Below the pieces are notes generated by a model. It was not told the origin of the DNA. It did no database searches and saw only the letters and a program-made list of their open reading frames with translations. From an uncultured bacterium (GTDB lineage: Bacteria > Zhuqueibacterota > QNDG01 > DTFT01), in contig CAVTNR010000012.1 of NCBI GenBank assembly GCA_963736115.1, forward strand, positions 288,001 to 352,000: DNA of 64,000 nucleotides, read 5' to 3'. Positions 25,644 to 41,481 of the stretch are shown here, piece after piece (the first letter of the stretch is position 1; each line of letters begins with the position of its first letter). Made by a program: the position numbers and the translations under genes.

Positions 25644-27107
25644 TTACTTTTCCCTGCCTGTCAGGATGTCCTCCAGACGCTGCCGTTTCACGTAGTTTTC
25701 AAATCGGAAGGACTCAGCCAGCGCGATCAGCTCTTTTTCCGACAGATTCCTGAACAGGCCGCAGTATTCCGGCAACAGCGCTTCGGATATCAGAATATGC
25801 CTGACCAGCTGGCGGATATGCCTATTCGGACCGGACGGGTAGGGATCGAATCCGGGGAACTCCTCTTTGAACATCTCCTCGATCGGCGCCATGATCGGGC
25901 GGATATGCTTATCGCTCGATCCCCAGGCATCCGCGCCCAGCGAATCCTTTCTGGCCAGGAATCGTGAAACCAGTTTCATGTAGGGCGTATCCGCTTTCTG
26001 ATGCAGAATGGCATGAAGCCCCATATCCTTGTACAACCAGATGCACCAACTCGCTCCGTATTTGTTAAAATAGGCCAATTGATCCTTCAGCACCCGGTAC
26101 CGGGTCTCGTCTTCCTTCGGATCGCCGGTATAGAGCGGGCCGAATTCACCGACCCAGATCGGGACCTTATTGGATAACATGAAGTCGCTCTTCTGGAGGA
26201 AAACCTGTTCCAGGGAGTCCTTGTCGATGTACCGGCCGTCGATGACGCCCGGATACTCGCCTCCAAAACCCGGCCGCGCGTAATCGTGATTGGTATACAC
26301 GACATTGTCCCATACTTCCGTAAACGAACTGAAATCCCTTGCATATCGATCGCCTTCCAGGAACAGAATGTGGTCCGGATCGACCTTTCGCACGGCATCG
26401 ACCAGGCGCCTGTAATACGGAAAAACTTTCCTGCCGGTGGGATCTGCCGGCTCATTGATCAGATCATAGCCTGCCACCCACGGTTGATCCCTGTAACGTG
26501 CGGCAATCGCCTCCCACAGGTTCAGCGCCCGGTCCTGAAAGTCCTTGTGCTTCCAGAACAGGGCGACATGGGTCGGATTGTCGCTGTGCCAGTGCTGATT
26601 CTGGAATCCCGGCAGGGCGTGCAGGTCGATGATGGTGTAGATTTGATGCCTGGCGCACAGCTCGATCACCCGGTCCAGGTGCTCGAATGCGCCTTCCCGG
26701 ATGACCCGGGGATTCATGTCATCTTCAAAAAGATGGTAATTGATGGGAATGCGGATCAGGTTCATTCCCAGGCTGTGTATGTATTCCGCATCCGGTTCCG
26801 TGAAGTAGTTTTTCAGGAAAACATCGAAGTAAAGATTGTACTTTTCCGGGCCCAGCGCCTCCAGAAGCCCCTCCCGCATGGCTTCTTCATTGGCTGGATA
26901 TCCATTGATAAAATTCTCCATGTGCAGCATGCCGCCGAGTCCGAAACCGCGCAGGACGACCGGGTCTCCCTTCGTGTTGACGATTTGATCGCCCGAAACC
27001 GAGAGTCTGGTCTCGCCGCCCATGCCCGGTTTCTGCGTCCAGCCGCTTTCCGAGAACAGAAAGATCGTCAGGATGGCAAGCACCGGACATAATTTTGTGC
27101 GTTTCAT
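25644..27107 (-). CDS. glycoside hydrolase family 5
   Basis: NLIRIPINY, IIDLHALPG, YDLINEP (acid/base), PIWVGEFG (nucleophile); signal peptide from MKRTKL. Confidence 0.92.
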   Translation of the reverse strand: MKRTKLCPVLAILTIFLFSESGWTQKPGMGGETRLSVSGDQIVNTKGDPVVLRGFGLGGMLHMENFINGYPANEEAMREGLLEALGPEKYNLYFDVFLKNYFTEPDAEYIHSLGMNLIRIPINYHLFEDDMNPRVIREGAFEHLDRVIELCARHQIYTIIDLHALPGFQNQHWHSDNPTHVALFWKHKDFQDRALNLWEAIAARYRDQPWVAGYDLINEPADPTGRKVFPYYRRLVDAVRKVDPDHILFLEGDRYARDFSSFTEVWDNVVYTNHDYARPGFGGEYPGVIDGRYIDKDSLEQVFLQKSDFMLSNKVPIWVGEFGPLYTGDPKEDETRYRVLKDQLAYFNKYGASWCIWLYKDMGLHAILHQKADTPYMKLVSRFLARKDSLGADAWGSSDKHIRPIMAPIEEMFKEEFPGFDPYPSGPNRHIRQLVRHILISEALLPEYCGLFRNLSEKELIALAESFRFENYVKRQRLEDILTGREK

Positions 27108-27234
27108 ATGGATTCTCCTTCTTGATTGGCTGGGATACAAGCCTGCCTGAGAAATGGCATTGATGAATAATCCAGGATACTCCGATCGCACCGGGGTTCC
27201 GCCCCGGTGCGTGTCATCATGGAGGGCTCCGCCC

Positions 27235-27790
27235 TCCGAACCACCAGCCCTCTTGAACGGCTACATAGGTGATGTCCGAAGTCCAGACCTTGCCAGGCTG
27301 ATCAGTCGTGAAATTTCGATTCAGAAGATTGGGAGCAATCGGTAAATCATGACCGCTATCCGTAGTGACCCTGAATCTGCGTTTAATCGATGCGGAAATG
27401 CCATTTTTACGCATGATTCTCGCTATCCGTGGACGACTGACCATGACTCCTTCATCTCTCAGGCAACTCATGATTCGTGGACTGCCGTATGTTTTTCTGG
27501 TCCCTTGGTGAATCGTTTGAATTCGTTTAAGCAGTCTCTCGTTTTCAGTGGCCCGACGGCTTGGGACTCGATGAAGCCAACTGAAGTAACCGCTTGGACT
27601 GACTTTCAGTGCCTGGCAGATCTTGGTGACAGGGAAATCTTTCTGGTTTTCCCGGATAAACCCATATTTCAGGAACTTTCTCTCGAAAAAAAAGCCAAGG
27701 CTTTTTTTAAAATGTCCCGTTCCATTTTTGTGTCCGCCAGTTCTTTCACCGAATCACCAGTGTCTGAATCGCCCGGCCCGGAATTGTCAC
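27235..27790 (-). mobile_element. IS3-family transposase remnant (end of OrfA + first half of OrfB)
   Basis: ERDILKKALAFF with A7G frameshift window; KYGFI...YGSPRI...TTDSGH..IAPNLLNRNF...WTSDITY; truncated at both ends. Confidence 0.88.
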
Positions 27791-27799
27791 CGGAAAGAA

Positions 27800-29251
27800 C
27801 CGCTTGTTGAATTCGACCTGAAAGCGCACCGGCTTGTTCTCCCTGATTCAAGAACCGCCAGAGCAATCGATCCGTCCGCGTTTTGACAAGCCGCAGCCAT
27901 CAAATCCTCGGACTCTGAGTCGAGGCCGATCCGCCTGCGCCCCGGGCCGTATGAATTTGCTGAAATGCGCCATCACATAATAGAGGGGCGTGTAATAAAC
28001 CGTATCCGTTTCGGGATCGGCCAGCACCGGCGCGACGCACCAGTTCTTTTTATGGTTGGGTCCGCCCTGAAAATCGAGCACCATGTTCCAGTCGATCCAG
28101 CCCGTCAGCCAGCTGTTGAGTCCCCCGATGATGTCCCGGGCATACCGGTAAACCGGCACATAGGGCGGATGTTTGTCCCTGTCCGCTTCGACAGCCCAGA
28201 AAAACCCCCAATCAGTGGCTTCTTTGTTCCAGTACCATTCATCCTTCAGCCATACACCGGCCGGTTCATCGTTGCCCACATTGTCGATACAGCCTTCGGT
28301 ATGCATCAGCATTTGATCGGGATACTTTTCATGAACCGCGTTCAGAGCATCCGGATACCAGTCCGTTGTGCTGCTGTACCAGTGCACTGCCGTGCCCCAC
28401 ACAACATCGGCCAGATCGGGATCGTCGAGCATGGAGGCCCATTCCTCGAGTTCATCCCGGTTCTGATCGTAAATGAGAATCTTGACGTCCAGACCGTCTT
28501 TCTTGAACTGCGGGGCCAGATGCGATTTGACGAAATCCGCCTCGGTCTGAGGCGTGAAAATCATACTCTCCCACTGCCCGCCGTTGCCGAGAGGCTCGTT
28601 CTCAACGGTCACACCCCAGATGGGAATGCCCTGCGTTTGATACGCCTGAATAGTTTTTGCGAAATACAGCGCCCAGGTTGAATAATATTCAGGCTTTAAG
28701 GATCCGCCGAACCAATCCTCATTGTCCTTCATCCAGGGCGGCGCGGTCCACGGCGAGGCCAGGATTTTGAATCCATCTTTGGATGCTTTCATCGCATCCT
28801 GAATGAACGGAATGAGATCATCCATGTCTTCCTGTATGCTGAAATGCGCAAGGCCCGTATCGCCTGGAATGGTATCATAGCTGTAGGGGGTCAGGGAAAA
28901 ATCGCAGCTGTTGATGTGTGTGCGGGTGAGGCTGTATGCCGCGCCGTCCGGACTGAAATAGCGCCGGATCACTTCCGTCCGTTTGGCTTTGCTCAATTTC
29001 GAGAGCACATAAGCCGAAGATTCCGTGAAAGCCCCGCCGAAACCCGTTATCTGCTGATATTGCCGGTCAGGATGAATCACCAAAGTGGCTCGTTCGGGAT
29101 CTCGTGTTTCAATAGCGGCAACTCTTCCTTTATCAACCAGCTTGTCGCCGGCTTGGGAAGTCTGATAAATCCGAAGCGCTTCTGATTCCCGGGAACATGA
29201 CAAAAGAATCGTTGCGGACAGAAGGAAGAGGGTCGCGGTGATACTTTTCAT
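27800..29251 (-). pseudogene. glycoside hydrolase family 30 lipoprotein, C-terminus frameshifted and truncated at IS3 remnant
   Basis: GFGGAFTES, ASPWTAPPWMK, TVENEP, HTEGC, WIDWN, HFSKFIRPGA; several indels after 27940. Confidence 0.8.
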
Positions 29252-29359: not shown

Positions 29360-29472
29360 TTTTAGCAGTGCTTCTCTTCCACGTTGACCTCCAGTTGTGT
29401 GAGCACTGGTAATAATTAAATCATAAAACTGCTCACTTGAAACGGGGGCCAAAATAGGAGCTTCAATTGGCA
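29360..29472 (-). other. possible highly decayed attC site (distal end of array)
   Basis: Imperfect inverted repeat (GTGAGCA/TGCTCAC, TTGACCTCC/GGGGGCCAA) just after the last cassette gene; cores degenerate. Confidence 0.3.
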
Positions 29473-29501
29473 ATTTAATTATTTATGAATTATCGATTTG
29501 A

Positions 29502-30056
29502 TCACAATTTACGCTGCGGAAACAGGTAGTATTCAATCCCTAAATTGAAGCTGATATTTGTAAATGTATAGCTATTGGTTCTGAGAATAAAAGTATGTGG
29601 TCCTACTCTGAAATCGATTCTTTTTGATAGTAACCACTTTTTATCCATTCCAAAATCAACGGCATACCCATCCTCTATAAAATCACCTTGTTTATTCCAG
29701 CTATTGGAAAAATGCGTGGTTCCATAAGCTCCGGATAAATGGAAACTGATACTGCTTTGCGTACTATACGCGAGTCCGATACCATATGCATCAAGATTAA
29801 TATATCGATACTTTTCGCCAATATTTTTTTTGATAAATCCGCCAAATTCACTGAAAGACACAGCGTATTTATCCGCAAAGCCCCATCCAATTGCATGATT
29901 TTTTGTGACGATCGTAAAGCCGGATTCATTGATAGTGTTAAATTCTTTCATAAAACCGGGGCCAAGGCTGAATCTCAGGAATGGGCCTTTTTGCGCTATC
30001 ACATGATTTGACGAGAAAACGATCAAGCAAAACAGGATTGTTTCCTTAAAACGCAT
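29502..30056 (-). CDS. hypothetical secreted outer-membrane beta-barrel protein (integron cassette)
   Basis: Signal peptide, alternating hydrophobic strands, aromatic C-terminal strand GIEYYLF; AT-rich; RBS AAGGAG. Confidence 0.65.
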   Translation of the reverse strand: MRFKETILFCLIVFSSNHVIAQKGPFLRFSLGPGFMKEFNTINESGFTIVTKNHAIGWGFADKYAVSFSEFGGFIKKNIGEKYRYINLDAYGIGLAYSTQSSISFHLSGAYGTTHFSNSWNKQGDFIEDGYAVDFGMDKKWLLSKRIDFRVGPHTFILRTNSYTFTNISFNLGIEYYLFPQRKL

Positions 30057-30133
30057 CATATACTCCTTCGGTTTATTTATCGGAATTATTGCTTTTCCAT
30101 GAGCCATATTTTTGTATCTCAAGGAATTAACTT

Positions 30134-30255
30134 TTCCAACGCAAGCATGTGCGGCGCAACCCTAATCGTTTTTCTTGTCTACATATTATGTAGTGATCCA
30201 TCAATTATTAAAATTATACGTTCGGGTTGCGTCCAGCAATTTACAGGGGTTGGCT
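30134..30255 (-). other. attC site (partly degenerate)
   Basis: Minus strand AGCCAAC...GGACGCAACCC...GGGTTGCGCC...GTTGGAA; overlaps the DUF1003 stop codon. Confidence 0.7.
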
Positions 30256-30946
30256 ATTTCATTTTATTTCGCAACTCTTCAAGTATTTCAATTTGAATTT
30301 CCTGAATCTTGATCATTTTTGACCATTGGTCTAATAGTAAATGATCCACTTTCTCATGAAGTGTACGAATCTCAATTTCAGATTTAAGATTGACCTTGTA
30401 ATCATTTTCCGAACGTATTCTGTCTTTTTTCTCCTGCCTGTTTTGGCTCATCATAATAATTGGAGCTTGAATTGCGGCTATGCATGACAGAATCAGGTTC
30501 ATTAAAATAAAAGGATAAGGATCAAAAGGCTTTTTTAATACAACATAACTGTTAATTGCAATCCATAAAAATAGAATTATAAAAAATATAATAATAAATT
30601 TCCAACTTCCGCCAAAAGACGCTACTTTGTCTGAAATCGAATCACCTATTCTTAATTTCTCTTTAATTGAAATATTTATATTCTCCGCAATTAATTCATT
30701 ATTGTTAATGCTTTTGATTACATCTCTTTCTAGTTCTTTGATGTTTGTACTTTCATCATTGATAAGTTTAGCAATATACTTTTCACGGTATGAATAATAA
30801 TCGGATTTACAGATAGTTTTACTGTCATTCCAATCAGGAAAATCATATAAAATAAGATTTTCAATTTCCTGTCGAATTCCATGGCCACTAATGATATCGT
30901 CTTGAGGAAAATCTTTTCGACAAACATGACACGTTATACTGACCAT
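30254..30946 (-). CDS. DUF1003 membrane protein (integron cassette)
   Basis: FGGSWKFI, FDPYPFILMNL, AAIQAPIIMMSQNRQ...DYKVNLKSE; AT-rich. Confidence 0.9.
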   Translation of the reverse strand: MVSITCHVCRKDFPQDDIISGHGIRQEIENLILYDFPDWNDSKTICKSDYYSYREKYIAKLINDESTNIKELERDVIKSINNNELIAENINISIKEKLRIGDSISDKVASFGGSWKFIIIFFIILFLWIAINSYVVLKKPFDPYPFILMNLILSCIAAIQAPIIMMSQNRQEKKDRIRSENDYKVNLKSEIEIRTLHEKVDHLLLDQWSKMIKIQEIQIEILEELRNKMK

Positions 30947-30969
30947 TTTCGGCCTTTCTGTTTTAATTT

Positions 30970-31064
30970 ATCTAATGTGAAAAAAACTGGTGCGCACTCA
31001 AACGATAATAAGCGGTTTGAAATTCATGGAGCGAGTGCGCATCCAGTTCGTTTCAGGGTAAGCC
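30970..31064 (-). other. degenerate attC site
   Basis: Minus strand GGCTTAC...AACTGGATGCGCACTC...GAGTGCGCACCAGTT...ATTAGAT; both cores mutated (AAC to TAC, GTT to ATT). Confidence 0.7.
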
Positions 31065-31091
31065 AAAATTATTTACGTATACTTTTGACAA

Positions 31092-32102
31092 TCACCGCAT
31101 CAGCTGTCTAACGCCGGCGCAGATGCGCTGTTTGTTGGGGAGACTTTGGTCCTCAAGGTGACGGGCGTAAGGGATGGTTGTTTGGGTGCAGACACGGGCA
31201 TACTTGCAGGATATGCCGGCCTCCAGCACTATCGCGGACAATTCTCCTGAAAGACCAAAGCCCTCGTAATCTTCATCCACCACTAACAAGTGCATAGTCC
31301 GTGCGACTGCTTCGCAGACTGCCGTTTTATCTATCGGAGAGACAGTCCGCAAGTCCAGCACACCTGCTGAAATCCCTTCAGTCTCAAGCATTTGCGCGGC
31401 TTCTAAAGCGCGGTGTATGCCTACACCAACACTGACGATTGTCACATCATCTCCAGGGCGTCTAAGGGCAGCTTTACCGATGGGAACGGGTTCCCACTTT
31501 TGAGGAACAGTGTTTTTCGCCCCTTCGGCAGGAACATCATACTGAACCGTGCGGCGCCCTCCTGATCCCAAGAATTCAAGCCAAATCTCAGAGAGGAGTT
31601 TATGTTCAAGGAAGATGACTGGACCATCGTGCTCTAGAGCGGCCAGCATAAGGCCGCCCGCGTCGGCTGGCGTCGATGGAACCAGTACAGTCAGCCCCGG
31701 GATATGCGCCAGCCAACCCCACAGAGACTGCTCGTGCTGTCCACCGTCGCCATAACCACCGCCACAAGGCACACGCACCACGATAGGCGCCGTCCATTTA
31801 CCGCCTGAAAACGCTTCGACTTTAGCGGCATGGTTGAGCAGGGCATCCATGCACACTCCGAGGAAATCAACCATGTACATTTCCACGACCGGGCGTAATC
31901 CAGCCATTGCGGCAGACACGCCGGCCCCTAGAAAGGCGCTTTCGCTGATAGGGGTACCCCGCACACGTCCAGGTCCAAATCGCACGACCAGGTTACGTCG
32001 CAGCAACGGTGTGTCTTCGCCAAAAAGAATAATACGGGGGTCATCCGCCATGGCTTGGGCAAGTGCATCATCAACGGCCTGCGTAAAAAACATGGTTCTC
32101 AT
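31092..32102 (-). CDS. ThDP-dependent 2-oxoacid/acetoin dehydrogenase E1 beta subunit (cassette)
   Basis: TPISESAFLG, GLRPVVE, GGQHEQS, PSTPADAGGL, FLEHK, DLRTVSPID. Confidence 0.92.
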   Translation of the reverse strand: MRTMFFTQAVDDALAQAMADDPRIILFGEDTPLLRRNLVVRFGPGRVRGTPISESAFLGAGVSAAMAGLRPVVEMYMVDFLGVCMDALLNHAAKVEAFSGGKWTAPIVVRVPCGGGYGDGGQHEQSLWGWLAHIPGLTVLVPSTPADAGGLMLAALEHDGPVIFLEHKLLSEIWLEFLGSGGRRTVQYDVPAEGAKNTVPQKWEPVPIGKAALRRPGDDVTIVSVGVGIHRALEAAQMLETEGISAGVLDLRTVSPIDKTAVCEAVARTMHLLVVDEDYEGFGLSGELSAIVLEAGISCKYARVCTQTTIPYARHLEDQSLPNKQRICAGVRQLMR

Positions 32103-33127
32103 AACGGCACCTCCACCCACGCAGAGGCAAGCACGTTGCTTATCTCTTTCTCAACCTGGTCTTCCAGCTCCTGCAAACGGTCCGGGTCCGACTTCAGGGT
32201 TGTGCGCGCATACCGGACCGGGTCATTGGCAGAATCCTGGCGTGGATCGCGCACTGTTGAGAGCACCGCCGCAAGAACGGTTTTCAGCCCTGCCAAGCGT
32301 TCGGGTAAAGCAGCCCCGCCACGACTTAAGAATGATTGTGTGAGCGGAACGGCGATACCGGGCATTTCTCTGAGCGGATCGCGCACAATCCTTAACAGTT
32401 GATAGCCCAAGAAATGGCCTTCGAAATGTACGCATCGGGCATGCAGGAAGGTCGGCCCCTGACCGGAACGGGCGAGTTCAATCGCCCCCTTGGCAGCCTC
32501 CCACACTGCGGACACGTCGTAACCGTCCACTTCAACAGCAGGGATGCCCAGCCCGCGCGCTCGTTCATTCAAATTCCCACCAGTCACCTTTACGGACTGG
32601 GTGGTTATAGACCAGCTGTCATCCTTGCAGACAAACAACACGGGCAAATTCCAAGCCGCAGACAGATTCATCGATTCCATCAACATGCCCTGGTTCATTG
32701 CCCCTTCTCCGAAAAATGCAACGGCAATTGCACCTGGGTGTAAATATTGTGCCGCTAACGCAAAGCCTGCCGCAGTTGGTCCCGCTGCGCCGACGATCCC
32801 TGAAGAAGCGGCCAGAGTTTCTTTCGAAAAGAGGTGCATATGCCCACCCATGCCGCCGCACAGCCCGTCTGAACAACCAAGCAGTTCACGCAGAATAAGA
32901 AAAGGGTCTATGCCTCGCATGACCAAAGCTGATGTGCCACGGTGATCTAATGCCATTGCATCACCTTCACGTAAATGGGCAACAACGCCCGCAATAATCG
33001 CTTCTTCGCCTGTTCCAAGATGCATCTCGCCGGAAATCAACCCGTCGTGCCAGAGTTTGGCAATGGCTTCTTCAACTAAACGGCTTTTCAGCATCAACGT
33101 ATAAAGCGACCATAAATCAGGTGGCAT
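32099..33127 (-). CDS. ThDP-dependent dehydrogenase E1 alpha subunit, atypical (cassette)
   Basis: MHLGTGEEA, HRG, GGHMH, FFGEGAMNQG...WNLPVLFVCKDD, VDGYD, GPTFL. Confidence 0.9.
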   Translation of the reverse strand: MPPDLWSLYTLMLKSRLVEEAIAKLWHDGLISGEMHLGTGEEAIIAGVVAHLREGDAMALDHRGTSALVMRGIDPFLILRELLGCSDGLCGGMGGHMHLFSKETLAASSGIVGAAGPTAAGFALAAQYLHPGAIAVAFFGEGAMNQGMLMESMNLSAAWNLPVLFVCKDDSWSITTQSVKVTGGNLNERARGLGIPAVEVDGYDVSAVWEAAKGAIELARSGQGPTFLHARCVHFEGHFLGYQLLRIVRDPLREMPGIAVPLTQSFLSRGGAALPERLAGLKTVLAAVLSTVRDPRQDSANDPVRYARTTLKSDPDRLQELEDQVEKEISNVLASAWVEVPL

Positions 33128-33155
33128 AAATTCCTCTCTATCAACATCAATTGGC

Positions 33156-33213
33156 GGCTAACGCTCCGGTTCAGCGACGGCGGTATGCCGTCCGCTGGAA
33201 CCGGTTGTTAGCT
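33156..33213 (-). other. attC site (58 bp, canonical)
   Basis: AGCTAACAACCGGTTCCAGCGGACGGCATACCGCCGTCGCTGAACCGGAGCGTTAGCC: RYYYAAC-like...GTT cores, L boxes with extrahelical bases. Confidence 0.93.
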
Positions 33214-33265
33214 GACCATTATTTTACCATACTCTCAGAAGCCTTCGAAGACGTTTATCATACGA

Positions 33266-35624
<2,359 letters not shown>

Positions 35625-35631
35625 CATATTC

Positions 35632-36414
35632 TTATAGATTGCCCCATAAACCTCCATTCATCGTCACACGCGTATTCTCTTTTTTCTCGGATTCAATGTC
35701 GGTAAAGTGACCATGTCCAGGATAAACTATTGTTTTATCAGATAGAGATAAATATAATCTGCGTACAGATTTAACAATATCTTCTTTTGGGCCACTTCCA
35801 GGTAGATCACGCCGTCCGACAGTTCGATAGAATAAAACATCTCCGGATAATAAAATATTCTGTGTGTAAAAACAAATGCTCCCACGGGAATGACCGGGAG
35901 ATAAAAATGTTTTAATTTCTAACTCCCCCAAGCTTAATGTCTGATTATCAAATAATTCGATATCCGGCTTCCCAAGAAGTGATAATTTAAAATTCATCAA
36001 TTCAACTGTGCTTGGAGATTTTTTCATTTCTTCTACCATAGAAGAATCAAGCTTGCTTTCCCATGCTTCATATAGTTTTATATCTTCATGCTCTTCGCGT
36101 GAAAAACATATTTTTACTTCAGGGTATCTCGCCATTATGGCTGGCACACCATAAACATGATCTACATGACAATGTGTACAAAATATATATTTTAACGTTA
36201 GGTTTTTATCAATAATTATTGTTAATAAAGAATCTATCGAACCCCCTACGTCAAACAAAGCTGCCTCTTTACTGTGAGCATCGTACAAGAGATAACAATT
36301 TGTTTTAATTAATCCAGTAACTTGATAATTTAGAATATATTTTTCCTGAGATAAACAGAAATTCGATAAGAAAAGTACCCAAAATAAACTTGTAAAAATA
36401 TATCGTTTTTTCAT
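35632..36414 (-). CDS. secreted metallo-beta-lactamase-fold hydrolase (glyoxalase II-like), integron cassette
   Basis: THCHVDH, PGHSRG, SGD, YPGHG; signal peptide; AT-rich. Confidence 0.9.
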   Translation of the reverse strand: MKKRYIFTSLFWVLFLSNFCLSQEKYILNYQVTGLIKTNCYLLYDAHSKEAALFDVGGSIDSLLTIIIDKNLTLKYIFCTHCHVDHVYGVPAIMARYPEVKICFSREEHEDIKLYEAWESKLDSSMVEEMKKSPSTVELMNFKLSLLGKPDIELFDNQTLSLGELEIKTFLSPGHSRGSICFYTQNILLSGDVLFYRTVGRRDLPGSGPKEDIVKSVRRLYLSLSDKTIVYPGHGHFTDIESEKKENTRVTMNGGLWGNL

Positions 36415-36441
36415 ATCCTTCTCCCTACCTTTTACCTTTTG

Positions 36442-36535
36442 GTATAACGGGCTAATCAATGGTTTTGCCTCAAATGATTTTAAAAAGCCTTATGAGATGG
36501 AACGAGGCAAAATCCATTGCATTAGCGGGTTAGAA
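36442..36535 (-). other. attC site (94 bp), first in array
   Basis: TTCTAACCCGCTAATGCAATGGATTTTGCCTC...GAGGCAAAACCATTGATTAGCCCGTTATAC with two extrahelical bases. Confidence 0.9.
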
Positions 36536-36549
36536 ACATTTTTATTATT

Positions 36550-36740
36550 GAAGCTCCCCGCCGCCCGCTTCGCGGGACCAAGCTATTATATGCCTTCTGT
36601 TTGAAGGCAAGCGGCGGGGAATCTTCTATCTGTAGAGAAGAGGCATCTTATATTCGCTCGCTTACCCCGGGGCCCGCTGCGCGGGATCAAGCTATTATAT
36701 GCCTGCTTGTTGAAGACAAGCCCCGGGGAATGCGCTCGCT
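36550..36740. repeat. REP-like palindrome doublet, each hairpin carrying a 44-nt insertion (36564-36607, 36673-36716)
   Basis: Empty sites TCCCCGCCGC-AA-GCGGCGGGGA and CCCCGGGGC-AA-GCCCCGGGG; inserts 38/44 identical. Confidence 0.85.
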
Positions 36741-36899
36741 GTCAGATTCACATTCATCGACAATGATTTCCACTGTTTTAAACCGCTTGTTATTCTCATT
36801 GTCGATGCAGTACCGCAGGCAGACGAAACGGTCACCGTAAAATTCCATCCACTTCTTCGAGCCGGGCCGCCCCGGCGGTACCCTTTTGACAATATGCAT
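36687..36899 (-). pseudogene. small hypothetical protein downstream of intI, probably truncated at the palindrome doublet
   Basis: PGRPGSKKW..FYGDRFVCLRY...KRFKTVEIIVDE resembles (from memory) a family found beside integron integrases; reads into repeat DNA after ~50 aa. Confidence 0.55.
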
Positions 36900-36973
36900 A
36901 TCTGTTTTTCATGCGTTTGGACCTCCCCGGCGCGCTCCGGTGCAACGATCTGGCGGAACCCGGGGTTGACCCT

Positions 36974-37948
36974 CTATAAATCGTACGCTGGGCTTTTCAC
37001 CCCCAGGCCCCCGCGGTTCAGAACGTGCGTATAAATCTGCGTTGTGGCCACGTTCTCGTGGCCGAGCAGTTCCTGAACCGTCCGGATGTCGCTGCCCCGC
37101 ATCAGAAGGTGCGTCGCGAACGAATGGCGCAGGCTGTGGGGGCCGGCATGCTTCAGTATGCCGGCGCCGCGGATCGCCTGCTTCACGGCCCTTTGAAGAA
37201 CGGTCCCGTCCAGATGATGCCTTCACCTGATCCCGCTTCGCGGATCGATTGAAATCTGCCGCGCGGGAAAAACATACTGCCACGCGAATTCCTTCGAGGC
37301 ATTTGGATATTTGCGTTCAAGGGCGTACGGCATATAAACCGATCCGGTTCCTTCCATTAAATCCTTTTCATGAAGGTTCTTCACTTTCACCAAATGATCC
37401 TTGAGAGGGGCTGCCAGTCTCTCGGGAAGCATGGTGACCCTGTCCTTGAACCCTTTTCCGTCATGAACGGTGATCTGGCGATAGTCAAAATCGATGTCCT
37501 TCACCCTGAGCCGCAGGCATTCCATCAACCGCAATCCGGAACCATACAGGAGCATGGCCAGGATCCAGGCTGTGCCTTTCAATCGACTCATGACCGCCTT
37601 GATTTCGGCGGGCGAGAAGACGACCGGCAGCTTCCTGGGCTTTTCGGCCCATATCAGCTCCAGGTCCCCGATCTTCTTTTCAGAACGTGTTTGTAGAGGA
37701 AAATGACCGCGCAAAGCGCCTGATTCTGGGTCGAGGCTGAAACGTTCCGGCGCACGGCCAGGTGTTTCAGAAATTCGTTGATCTGGTGTTCCCCCAGGTC
37801 CGAGGGATCCCGGTTTTCGTGAAACCTGACGAAGCCGGCCGCCCATCCGAGATAGGCGGTCTCCGTCCTCAGGCTGTAATGCATGGCCCTCAGCACGGCC
37901 CGCATCTCGCCCATCCAGAGGGGGATTTCCGGGGATTGAACGTCCATA
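36974..37948 (-). pseudogene. intI: integron integrase (frameshift ~37680, in-frame TGA at 37223-37225)
   Basis: [30 protein letters not shown], IntI patch [49 protein letters not shown]. Confidence 0.95.
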
Positions 37949-38265
37949 CGGAAGTGTCTCCGCTTTTTTCCGCGAAGCAGCCCCCGATGCGCCGTTGATC
38001 CTGCCTGCCCGACCCGCCACGGTATCTCCTGAATACGAATGCACGGATGCGTTCGGACGGGAATGAACAAAATTTTCGATTATTTTATCGACTCAAAAGC
38101 GTGCATGCCTGCCTGAAAAAGGCGGGTGAAATTCCCCGTCTGACGGCGCCCGGCTGCGCCGCTGTCCGTTAGGAATGATTGAATAAACTCCCTGACATCG
38201 AACGGCATGAATCCCTCCCGTTGCGAGCCTGAGGATGGAAAACCCGGAGATTAATTAGTTGTCTT

Positions 38266-38415: not shown

Positions 38416-39606
38416 CTACCGTTTCTTTTTGAGAATTTCGAGATTCCTCGCGATGAGTTCGTTCCTCTGCGCCACGCAGGCCGCGGATCGGAGGGGATCC
38501 GGGGGCGTGTTCCGGCAATAGTCCAGGAGCTTTTCCACCGTTGTCGTTGCCACGTGCATGCGGGTGTCGGACGATCCGTAGTAGATGAGCACCCGGCCGT
38601 CCGGCCGTGCCACCCACCCGTTACTGAACACCACGTTCGACACGTCCCCGACCCGCTCCTCGCCCTCGGGCGCGAGAAAGTACCCGCCCGGCTTCCGGGT
38701 GACCCGCGTCGGGTCATTCAGGTCCGTCATCAGCAGATACAGCACGTAGCGGAGCCCGGCGGCCGTGTTCCGCACGCCGTGCGCCAGGTGCAGCCAGCCT
38801 TCGGCTGTTTTGATCGGCGCGGGCCCCTGCCCGTTCTTCACCTCATTGACGGTGTGATAGACCTTCGGGTCGATGATGGTTTCATCGGGGATGGAAGCGT
38901 GTTCGATGGACTCCGACAGGCCGAATCCGATGCCGCCGCCCGATCCGGTGCTGATGAATTCGTCCATGGGCCGTGTGTAGAAAGCGTATTTCCCATTGAC
39001 GAACTCCGGATGCAGAACCACGTTCCTCTGCTGGGGCGACGGGCTCCGGAGGTCGTCGAGCCGCTCCCAGTGCTCGAGATCGCGCGTGCGCGCGATGCCC
39101 GCCTGGGCCGTGGCCGAGGACTGGTCCGCTTGAGGCGCCTTGGGATCTTTCCGCTCCGTGCAGAACACGCCGTATATCCAGCCATCCTCATGGCGAACCA
39201 CCCGCATGTCGTAGACATTGACGTCCGGGTCGTCCGTTTCGGGCATCGAGATGGGAGTGTCCCTGAACCGGAACCGGTCGATTCCGTTCGGGCTCTCCGC
39301 GACAGCGAAGAACGACTTGCGGTCCGCCCCTTCGACCCTCACCACGAGCGCGATTTTCCCGTTGAATTCGATTGCTCCCGAATTGAACGCCGCGTTGATT
39401 CCCAGGCGCTCCATGAGGTGGGGATTGGACGCAAAATCGAAATCGTACCGCCAGAACAACGGCGTGTGTTCCGCGGTGAGCGCCGGGTATTTGTACCGCT
39501 TGAACACGCCGTTCCCGCCGGCCAGGGGCGGGTTGCGGCGCTGGATCAGCGTCTCGTGCCGGAACCGGAGCGCGGCCATCGCCCGTTTGAACTGGTTTCG
39601 GTTCAT
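38416..39606 (-). CDS. GH130 4-O-beta-mannosylglucose phosphorylase-like
   Basis: [67 protein letters not shown]. Confidence 0.92.
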
Positions 39607-39639
39607 GATCCTCTTTTCTCCGTCATGCGGACCCGGGCC

Positions 39640-41481
39640 TCAGTCCGAGAGCTTGTTCCACCAGGTCTTCTTCAGGATCAGGGAGGTGATGACGAGCACT
39701 GCGACCGCCTCGAAGAAGGGCGCCGCGCTGCGGATCACCAGGTAGACCGGGATCAGGATCAAACAGGTCTGCCAGATGATGCCGATCACGACATTGAAGG
39801 CGTCGCGCTTGAAATTCGCGTCGGATTTGAACTTGGGATCGGCCTTCACGACCTTATCGTGAATGGGTTTCCAGAAACCCCACGGCCGCACCTGCTTGTA
39901 GAACTGCATCAGAATCTTGTCGTCCTCGGGCCTGGTCAGAAGCGTGCCGAGGACGCACCCGGCAGTGGATAGAACGAGAATGACCGGGAACGAGTACAGG
40001 GCGTACAGGTTCGGCACGATCTCCGGGTAGACCCAGAGGTAGAGACCCGGGAACTTCGACAGCAACAGCGCCGCCGCGATGCCCGTGGCCATGCCCCAGA
40101 AATAACCGTACCCGTTGAACCGCCACCAGTACCACTTCAGGATGTTGGCCGCGGTGTACCCGCCCCACAGGGCCGAGACGATCCACTGCGTGACCTGGTT
40201 GATGTCCCTGGCGTGGAGCCCGAAGAAAATGCCGATGATGACAAACGCGAACGACACGGCGTAGCTCAGCCAGATCAGCTTCCGGTGCGAGGCATTGGGG
40301 TTGATGTAGCGTTTGTAGATGTCATTCACCACGTAGGCCGGGGCCGCGTTGACCGTGGCCGCGAACGTGGACATGAACGCGGCCAGAAGGCCCGCCAGCA
40401 CCAGGCCGAGGAGCCCGGCTGGTATGAAATTGCCCAGTACATACGGGAGCACCTTCTCGAAATCGATTCCCGTGCCCATGGCATTGAGCTGGGGACTGAA
40501 AAAGACGAGCGCCATGATCGTAATGCCGGCGATCATGAGGTAGCGCGTGGGAAACAGGCAGAGGGAGACGAACCAGCTCATCTTGGACGCTTCCTTCGGA
40601 TTCTTCGTTGCGAGCACCCTCTGCATGTCGTAATTGGGCGCAGGCCCCGCGAGGCTGACGAGTATGCCCTTGAAGAGCACCATCATGAAGAAAATGGTGA
40701 AGAGCGAATACCCGTCCTCCGCGATCTTCATGTTCACGCTCTGAATCAGCCCGGACCAGTCAAGGTTCAAATTCCACCCGAAGAAGACGTTCTTCCATCC
40801 TTCAGGCACGGCCGACGCGACCGCTTCGGGCGACGTCCTCATGATGGCCACGATGCCCACGCCCACGCACGACACGGTCATGACCACGAACTGGAGCAGT
40901 TCCGTGACCACGACGCTGTACATGCCGCCCGCCACCACGTACACGGACGTGAGCAGCATCAGGCCGGCCGCGTACCAGTTGCCGTTGGTGACCGGATCCG
41001 CGGAGAACTGCCAGGGCAGGAACATGGCCGCGAACTTGCCCACGCCCGCGAAGTCGTAGGCGATGAATCCGATCACGCTGACCAGGGCGAACACCACCAC
41101 GCTGAGATGCGACAGCACCGCGCCCCTCCCGGTTCCGAACCGGGTGTCGATCCATTCCGCCCCGGTCATGACGTTCGAGCGCCGCATCCATTTCGCGAGA
41201 AACACCATCAGGAAGATCTGGTTGAACACGGGCCAGAGCCACGGAATGAAAATGGACTTGAGGCCGTAGACGAAGGTGATGTAAACCAGCCACATGGTGC
41301 CCGTGATGTCGAACATGCCCGAGGCGTTCGACACGCCGAGTATCCAGTAGGGCAGTCCCTTATCGGCCAGAAAGTACGAATTCAGGCCCTTGGACGCCTT
41401 TTTGGTCAGAATAAAACCGATCATAACGGTCAGAATCAGGTAGACGATGATGATGCCGATGTCGACCGCACCCAGTTTCAT
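39640..41481 (-). CDS. sodium:solute symporter (mannoside uptake context)
   Basis: YFLA...SNASGMFDITG, QRVLATK, GLLAAFMST; ~14 TM; adjacent to GH130. Confidence 0.9.
   Translation of the reverse strand: MKLGAVDIGIIIVYLILTVMIGFILTKKASKGLNSYFLADKGLPYWILGVSNASGMFDITGTMWLVYITFVYGLKSIFIPWLWPVFNQIFLMVFLAKWMRRSNVMTGAEWIDTRFGTGRGAVLSHLSVVVFALVSVIGFIAYDFAGVGKFAAMFLPWQFSADPVTNGNWYAAGLMLLTSVYVVAGGMYSVVVTELLQFVVMTVSCVGVGIVAIMRTSPEAVASAVPEGWKNVFFGWNLNLDWSGLIQSVNMKIAEDGYSLFTIFFMMVLFKGILVSLAGPAPNYDMQRVLATKNPKEASKMSWFVSLCLFPTRYLMIAGITIMALVFFSPQLNAMGTGIDFEKVLPYVLGNFIPAGLLGLVLAGLLAAFMSTFAATVNAAPAYVVNDIYKRYINPNASHRKLIWLSYAVSFAFVIIGIFFGLHARDINQVTQWIVSALWGGYTAANILKWYWWRFNGYGYFWGMATGIAAALLLSKFPGLYLWVYPEIVPNLYALYSFPVILVLSTAGCVLGTLLTRPEDDKILMQFYKQVRPWGFWKPIHDKVVKADPKFKSDANFKRDAFNVVIGIIWQTCLILIPVYLVIRSAAPFFEAVAVLVITSLILKKTWWNKLSD

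Follow-up and report, generated by a model that had tools for sequence, protein, structure and literature searches.

A reverse integron, probably sedentary and caught in decay, on the chromosome of an uncultured KSB1-type bacterium

In canonical integrons the integrase gene, intI, is divergent from the cassette array. The locus considered here departs from this rule. It lies in a 64-kb stretch of DNA (G000:C12:288001-352000, referred to throughout, in its whole length, as the window) from a genome of 3.34 Mb in 31 contigs, 87% complete, whose host would be a bacterium of a KSB1-type phylum. Within the window, intI is on the minus strand and the array follows it in the same direction. Is this a true reverse integron, the product of a rearrangement or no integron at all, and can it still work? 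A first-pass annotation of the bare sequence had left the choice between a reverse integron in a KSB1-like lineage and a secondary rearrangement. The former stands; the latter finds no support, given that congeners and many members of the phylum share the layout. Very probably, what the locus contains is a chromosomal and sedentary integron with the reverse (inverted-integrase) layout, caught in the course of decay.

The integrase gene occupies positions 36974 to 37947 of the minus strand (ATG at 37947, stop codon at 36974), on the evidence of the TIGR02249 model and of alignment with relatives. It is recovered in two pieces. The C-terminal one (37681-36974) scores 346.8 bits over model positions 88-312, above the curated cut-off of 265, and the N-terminal one (38070-37654) scores 86 bits over positions 4-81; the intact IntI of a relative reaches 443 bits. 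By this model the product is a tyrosine recombinase of the IntI subfamily, complete with the extra segment that is specific to IntI. It is the sole integron integrase of the genome, the two Xer-type matches falling far below the TIGR02249 cut-off.

Downstream of intI are five hairpins with the structure of attC sites, namely R''/R' cores and an imperfect L''/L' stem with extrahelical bases on one arm. All are intergenic and come after open reading frames (ORFs) of the minus strand, the strand on which the sites themselves are read. The first, attC1 (36535-36442; R'' TTCTAAC, R' GTTATAC), is the sole remainder of a cassette that preceded the one encoding a metallo-beta-lactamase (MBL)-fold protein. 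The latter cassette ends in attC2 (35624-35500), the katG cassette in attC3 (33213-33156); these are followed by attC4 (31064-30970; R'' GGCTTAC, R' ATTAGAT), which is degenerate, and attC5 (30255-30134; R'' AGCCAAC, R' GTTGGAA). Folded as the plus strand of the window, the five sites give z-scores between -2.6 and -6.9 (attC1, -3.64; attC3, -6.94; attC4, -5.69; attC5, -3.77), with none or one of 200 shuffled sequences being equally stable. A sixth candidate (29475-29385) has a z-score of -0.75 and no attC-like hairpin. In all five sites the unpaired extra bases are on the 3' arm of the plus-strand fold. Extrahelical bases belong on that arm when the bottom strand, which recombines, is the plus strand and the cassettes have the minus strand as their top strand. 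We checked this arm rule on canonical arrays with a detector of our own, which placed the sites opposite the intI strand in 17 of 18 cases in a locus from Calditrichia (L025), 12 of 12 in L056 and 6 of 6 in L035. Applied to the window, the same detector assigns the top strand to the minus strand at every one of the five sites (scores of 18 for attC1 and 11.5 for attC5). The integrase gene is thus on the top strand of the cassettes, with the array on its 3' side.

An independent measure was obtained with a covariance model, R1, trained on 24 attC sites from five canonical integrons of Acidobacteriota, Verrucomicrobia, Neptunomonas and a proteobacterial metagenome-assembled genome. RNAalifold, run on the training set, returned the textbook features of attC, namely the R''/R' helix, the L''/L' helix and two unpaired columns in the 5' arm, with compensatory changes in 16 of the 20 pairs of the consensus. 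When the whole 64 kb was searched unfiltered, the best match was attC3 (33215-33154, minus strand; 49.7 bits, E 2.7e-11), followed by attC1 (36536-36440, minus; 29.0 bits, E 1.2e-5) and attC2 (35626-35498, minus; 27.2 bits). The fourth-ranked match scored 12.5 bits (E 0.4), and the best of the attC sites as read on the plus strand 9.1 bits. Neither R1 nor the detector found an attC-like site 5' of intI. The strand and position of the sites proposed in the first-pass annotation are therefore borne out by the folds, the detector and R1 alike, while the covariance model as such vindicates attC1 to attC3 and not the remaining two. The inverse core at the end of a cassette also pairs with the opening of that same cassette, as had been noticed from the letters: GTTATAC with GTATAAC at seven of seven positions, and GTTAACT with AGCTAAC and GTTAGCC with GGCTTAC at six of seven. 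A stricter scan that demanded R''/R' complementarity inside one site returned attC3 only; this criterion is unsuitable here because R' in an array is a hybrid with the next cassette. Sites scoring at least 12 with the detector number 58 in the 3.34-Mb genome, about one per 58 kb, versus three in 3.4 kb at this locus. Rfam, a collection without an attC model, yielded no relevant family, either at the gathering threshold over the whole window or at E ≤1 between 29000 and 38400.

Several lesions separate this copy from a working integron. Compared with the intact genes of two relatives, L007 and L008, intI is one base short in an A run (37680-37677) and carries an in-frame TGA (37225-37223) at a codon that is AGA in both; metagenome contigs of relatives have one extra base at 37676, the point near which the frame is lost. 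Past intI, the first 50 or so codons of a conserved 115-aa gene, here called orfX, are left at 36746..36899 on the minus strand (81% by tblastn over residues 1-59; profile match over positions 1-59 of 112). Homology to the relatives ends near 36746, some 50 codons inside orfX. What follows, in the place of the remainder of orfX and of attI, is a dispersed repeat of about 204 nt (36547..36750, minus strand) that ends 12 nt before attC1. No attI adjoins the platform; the rest of orfX, attI and the first cassette except for its attC are lost. Further down, attC4 lacks both core triplets, GTT and AAC (GGCTTAC...ATTAGAT), and katG is frameshifted near 34975. None of the four, that is, the intI pseudogene, the loss of attI to the repeat, the katG frameshift and the missing attC4 cores, had been noticed in the first-pass annotation. 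With five attC sites and the genome's only intI a pseudogene, the locus falls within the definition of a cluster of attC sites lacking integron integrases (CALIN; at least two attC and no functional intI nearby). The copy in the window is dead, and its array is a frozen relic.

A blastn search places copies of the 204-nt repeat, by the dozen, across most of the genome's contigs, with 97.8% identity over 181 nt on C8 (149957-150137) and 95.6% over 204 nt on C10 (75505-75708). It is formed by a pair of structured modules, each about 65 nt long, whose outer stems differ by compensatory changes (CCCCGGGGC/GCCCCGGGG in one, CCCCGCCGC/GCGGCGGGG in the other). It resembles a miniature inverted-repeat transposable element or a repetitive extragenic palindromic element and matches no Rfam family. 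Two sediment metagenomes contain it at very high contig depth.

Does the layout predate the damage? L007 and L008 are contigs of two genomes of the same genus (G028 and G030), with IntI 90% and 88% identical to that of the window. In both, intI is intact (324 aa), sits behind the same upstream genes in the same order (in L007, a GH130 gene of 396 aa and a symporter gene of 613 aa), and is followed by the 115-aa orfX and then by 145-147 nt of repeated motifs; both contigs stop at ...AAGGTTA(TA). The orientation is that of the window, with no divergent layout at the locus in either. The opposite flank, a GH5 gene, is 88-90% identical in DNA to contigs of G030 (C20, 90%) and of a third congener, G029 (C229). 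In G030 an attC site (35.3 bits), on the same strand as in the window, lies about 4.7 kb past this flank and 120 nt from the contig end. In G029 the GH5 gene is only about 3 kb away from the spacer 5' of intI; two attC sites lie in this interval, and neither IntI nor orfX was found in that genome. The cassettes of the window were not found in the congeners, nor was its GH30 gene in the three of them. The same locus in relatives thus holds differing cassettes, and it is in this sense, distinct from Cury's criteria of a 100% frequency within the species or over 19 attC sites, that we call the integron sedentary. The four congeneric genomes line up the stages of a decay: intact in G028 and G030, broken in the window genome, platform deleted in G029. 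Judging from these alignments, the reverse layout appears to be ancestral at the locus.

Several observations weigh against the interpretation of the locus as a reverse integron in decay. attC4 and attC5 are not matched by R1. Sequencing runs were searched and the stretch is contained in none of them (at best, 0.11 of the sampled words are shared), so that the one-base deletion in the A run of intI, the additional G of katG and the places where the 204-nt repeat joins its neighbours are without read confirmation; contigs from three runs gave relatives and many copies of the repeat and no check of the lesions. A repeat with dozens of copies could in principle produce a false join, and a 262-nt contig (at least 99%) that spans 36720-36981 extends only about 30 nt into it, where 31 were required. 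Finally, with the genome 87% complete, an unassembled piece might carry a working intI. Such gaps leave some room for a functional integron, in which the A-run, TGA and katG lesions would be assembly errors or the TGA would be read through. Both indels do fall in short homopolymers (the A run at 37680-37677 and a GG near 34975), neither has a read check, and the translation otherwise keeps the catalytic motifs of IntI. We nevertheless find this improbable. The TGA is a substitution, AGA standing in both relatives; with attI and two thirds of orfX gone, the difference is on the scale of 400 nt, beyond base-calling error; attC4 is without GTT and AAC; and the assembly is not ridden with indels in general, since the host genes of the flank match those of L007 in length (396 and 613 aa). 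The lesions would accordingly seem to be real rather than assembly errors.

Less probable by some way is that a foreign array was put behind a normally outward-facing integrase, either because intI was inverted recently or because the assembly is chimeric across the 204-nt repeat. The repeat at 36547-36750, with its dozens of copies, offers the means, and the array-side join has no independent contig. But in the congeners this locus carries intI, orfX and attI oriented as in the window, the GH5 flank is joined to same-strand attC sites in both G030 and G029, the latter genome links both flanks directly with a small array between them, and the layout is common in the phylum. Because the congeners keep an intact intI in the same place and orientation, the layout is unlikely to reflect either a recent inversion or a misassembly. 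That the hairpins might be terminators or chance palindromes near a Xer-like recombinase, in no integron whatever, can safely be dismissed in spite of the weakness of attC4, attC5 and the sixth candidate and of the 58 genome-wide detector sites scoring at least 12: intI is above a curated cut-off from which the two Xer-type genes remain far, three sites reach 27 to 50 bits on a model trained elsewhere with a strong asymmetry between strands, and the cores pair with the opening of their own cassettes.

How widespread the reverse layout is was examined in a sample of 167 genomes of the phylum (the counts include an unpublished genome, G158, which provides one of the 33 co-oriented loci below). 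IntI is matched at E ≤1e-40 in 83 of them, for a total of 93 matches over the cut-off. orfX lies immediately 3' of intI on the same strand in 33 of the 93, and 5' of it on the same strand in six; the other 54 have no orfX within 1.5 kb, many of them at contig ends. Where the contig continues, R1 detects co-oriented attC sites on the downstream side of intI in G089 (whose contig measures 786 kb), L019, G150, G058 and G278, and the reverse layout is seen in the relatives L090, L019, L089, L088 and L140, the last four with attC sites matched by R1. One locus, L009, bears the NCBI label of an uncultured Cytophagia bacterium and groups in the phylum of the window genome, at variance with that label.

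In a quick IQ-TREE analysis of 83 IntI rows, the window groups with L007 and L008 (SH-aLRT 100) inside a clade of 15 rows (SH-aLRT 94) that holds all 13 rows with a 3' orfX, namely the window and 12 other loci. Against this, the clade was not recovered once 19 IntI sequences from the phylum of another locus, L021, were added (102 rows). In the larger quick tree the orfX-bearing rows are distributed over four neighbouring groups, all inside a clade of 46 rows (SH-aLRT 86) that also contains reverse integrases of the L021 phylum, canonical rows and rows of unknown layout. The fewest layout changes needed are one, for the 21 rows with observed attC sites, or four, for 63 rows whose labels derive in part from contig breaks. 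A single origin of the reverse layout is possible.

Reverse integrons are not new. The first-pass annotation had placed co-oriented integrons mainly in Treponema, and this proves too narrow. Inverted or reverse integrons are an established type (PMC4889954, PMC3575428, PMC3607928), whose first description, in Treponema denticola, is credited to Coleman et al. (2004) by PMC7691350 and PMC3607928. IntI is divided into three broad groups, among them the 'inverted integron-integrase group' (PMC3575428 and PMC4889954, with reference to Boucher et al. 2007), which was found to be paraphyletic (PMC4889954). What the window adds is a new phylum and a clear example of decay, not a new principle; our literature search for integrons in KSB1, Calditrichota or Marinimicrobia, made outside subscription journals, found no paper. 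Like the T. denticola type, the integrons of the window clade are chromosomal and sedentary, with cassettes ending in attC. They differ from it in having a conserved 115-aa gene between intI and attI or, in six cases, 5' of intI, whereas the first T. denticola cassette comes directly downstream of intI, after attI (PMC7691350); the window copy differs also in being dead. A second sample, 251 genomes of the phylum of L021, agrees with this description of T. denticola (PMC7691350). IntI exceeds the cut-off in 24 of these genomes, co-oriented arrays with attC sites of about 66 nt occur in three complete genomes of about 2.8 Mb (G375, G185 and G235) and in G301, which would be Treponema-like, and orfX is present in only three of the 251.

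With canonical sedentary integrons, such as those of the Vibrio type or that of Calditrichia L025, the window shares the IntI family, the structure of attC and the logic of the cassettes; there intI and the array diverge (in L025, 17 of 18 sites are on the strand opposite to intI), whereas here the two are co-oriented. As an array deprived of a working integrase, the locus is comparable to a CALIN beside an intI pseudogene (Cury et al. 2016, PMC4889954) and to pseudo-integrons (Nemergut et al. 2008, PMC2426708). With the CALIN-pseudogene type it has in common an intI with a frameshift and a stop codon within 10 kb and the remnant of an insertion sequence (IS) nearby. Unlike either, it can be aligned, at one locus, with different stages of decay among four congeners. 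Pseudogenes of intI account for about a third of genomic intI genes (PMC2426708) and have been described next to CALINs (PMC4889954). A locus that documents how a working reverse integron turns into an orphan array bears on the origin of the many CALINs present in genomes.

How would the intact form have operated? In relatives, host genes, intI, orfX, a spacer of about 115-220 nt with three to five palindromic repeats, the attI core (TAA..GTTA) and cassettes ending in attC follow one another on a single strand. By analogy with the rest of its family, IntI would recombine attI with the attC of an incoming cassette, the latter as a folded bottom strand; the new cassette would insert beside orfX, oriented along the transcription of intI and orfX, and cassettes would then be readable from promoters presumably located upstream of attI. 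The window copy should be incapable of this, with a one-base deletion and a nonsense codon in intI and with the 204-nt repeat in the place of all of attI and of the last two thirds of orfX, on its 3' side. To this are added the absent attC4 cores, the katG frameshift, the IS3 remnant at the far end and the lack of any other integron integrase in the genome. Given these lesions, the five or six cassettes may be viewed as a frozen array, in effect a CALIN beside an intI pseudogene.

The decay series is of moderate interest; the main interest of the locus resides in the conserved succession of orfX, palindromes and attI. Beyond orfX, a core of the form TAA..(T/G)GTTA, taken as that of attI, occurs 114-218 nt past the gene in 21 of 23 spacers, and in most spacers, whether orfX follows intI or stands alone, it is preceded by three to five palindromic repeats that are specific to the lineage. 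The association is not confined to the reverse layout: in L025 orfX is placed between intI and the array, divergent from intI and pointing into the array. A search of 1.84 billion proteins at E ≤0.001 gives 2823 representative clusters of the family, whose members are spread over several phyla and likewise stand at the head of arrays without intI. In the phylum sample, 32 of the 71 orfX matches have no adjoining IntI. Twelve of these were fetched, and eight of the 12 lie 63-955 nt from a contig end, pointing outward.

Two genomes provide further orfX genes of this kind. G022, which is 94% complete, has four orfX matches (on C122, C55, C18 and C11) and no IntI at E ≤1e-40; at least two of the four are followed by palindromic repeats and the attI core. 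The window genome itself contains a second array (G000:C12:104000-114121; L087) headed by a full-length orfX and an attI-like site, without intI. Its first cassette is a toxin-antitoxin pair of the RelE/ParE type; later cassettes encode pieces of B12-binding/radical SAM proteins, an aquaporin, PEMT, a BD-FAE hydrolase, DUF3788 and HXXEE proteins. Two of its attC sites are matched by R1. The R'' of the first cassette, GCCGAAC, is complementary to the GTTCGGC that follows orfX, which identifies that site as the attI crossover point. Elsewhere in the genome, three attC-like sites on C16 (745-4011) and two on C22 (117371-118569) have bulges on the same arm and cores resembling RYYYAAC/GTTRRRY. These clusters are probably further orphan cassette arrays. 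The G+C content of contig C16 is low, 0.54.

What orfX does can be approached from its structure and position. The 115-aa protein is modelled with confidence (predicted local distance difference test, 91) as two small alpha/beta domains. It has no match in Pfam at E ≤1, the 70-aa remnant of the window, the only form scanned, has none in NCBIfam, and a Foldseek comparison of the model with the PDB returned nothing at E ≤0.001. The best hit of a wide VIA-align search had a Z of 4.0, under the meaningful level, and residues 54-115 gave only weak DUF5710 leads in the ESM Atlas, under threshold; no paper linking DUF5710 with integrons came up in a literature search outside subscription journals. 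A complex prediction for IntI with orfX gave a score of 0.01, from which we draw nothing for or against an interaction. A literature search whose coverage excluded most subscription journals retrieved no description of an orfX-like gene. We tentatively put forward, as a hypothesis that could well turn out otherwise, that orfX is an undescribed component of the integron platform in environmental integrons of a large group that takes in KSB1, Calditrichota, Neomarinimicrobiota and others, perhaps a DNA-binding accessory factor or regulator acting on the three to five palindromes and controlling recombination at attI or transcription of the cassettes. The palindromes are suggested as its target by their position alone. 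Should orfX have a role in recombination or in the expression of cassettes, a definition of the platform by three parts (intI, attI and the promoter Pc) would be incomplete for a large share of environmental bacteria, and the palindromes together with orfX would constitute a directly testable system.

The cassettes that survive in the window, all on the minus strand, are varied in content. Across the array the G+C content per kb ranges from 0.32 to 0.61, versus about 0.6 for the contigs of the genome. Next after the vestige represented by attC1, cassette 2 (35506..36447) encodes the MBL-fold hydrolase (ORF 36459-35632; Pfam Lactamase_B, 75 bits). Identification of the latter as a beta-lactamase resistance gene was considered and rejected, as the class B cut-offs of NCBIfam are missed (bla_class_B_core, 38.8 bits with a cut-off of 100; subclass B3, 28.9 with a cut-off of 240). 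Its best NCBIfam match, also under cut-off, is the hydroxyacylglutathione hydrolase model, and by sequence the predicted product resembles glyoxalase II. Cassette 3 (33162..35505) is katG, for a catalase-peroxidase, divided by the frameshift into ORFs 35462-34932 and 34978-33266; these align with positions 3-162 and 156-724 of the 725 in NF011635, in two frames. At 2.3 kb it holds a full-size gene with host-like G+C content. Cassette 4 (30976..33161) carries the alpha (33127-32099) and beta (32120-31092) genes of a 2-oxoacid dehydrogenase E1 component, recognized by Pfam (E1_dh, Transket_pyr, Transketolase_C) and NCBIfam. Both this two-gene cassette and that of katG are large as cassettes go. 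Cassette 5 (30140..30975; ORF 30946-30254) encodes a DUF1003 membrane protein (Pfam, 146 bits) in a segment with a local G+C content of 0.32. A possible sixth cassette (29385..30139) contains the gene for a 206-aa secreted protein (30122-29502) that has no match in Pfam or NCBIfam; the site after this ORF fails to fold.

The variable stretch is flanked on both sides by host genes for glycan utilisation, all on the minus strand and assigned with Pfam. On the 5' side of intI (38416..41481) the conserved flank comprises a glycoside hydrolase family 130 (GH130) gene (39606-38416) and a sodium:solute symporter gene (41481-39640); beyond the array, it is represented by the GH5 cellulase gene (25644..27191; Cellulase). 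The distal edge of the variable region (27240..29251) is formed by a GH30 glycosidase gene (29251-27848; Glyco_hydro_30) and by the remnant of an IS3-family transposase (about 27790-27240, minus strand; HTH_21), in which the end of OrfA and the start of OrfB are left. This remnant is truncated by another short dispersed repeat at 27184-27237, and a copy of it, 92% identical, is present in the congener G029 on contig C280.

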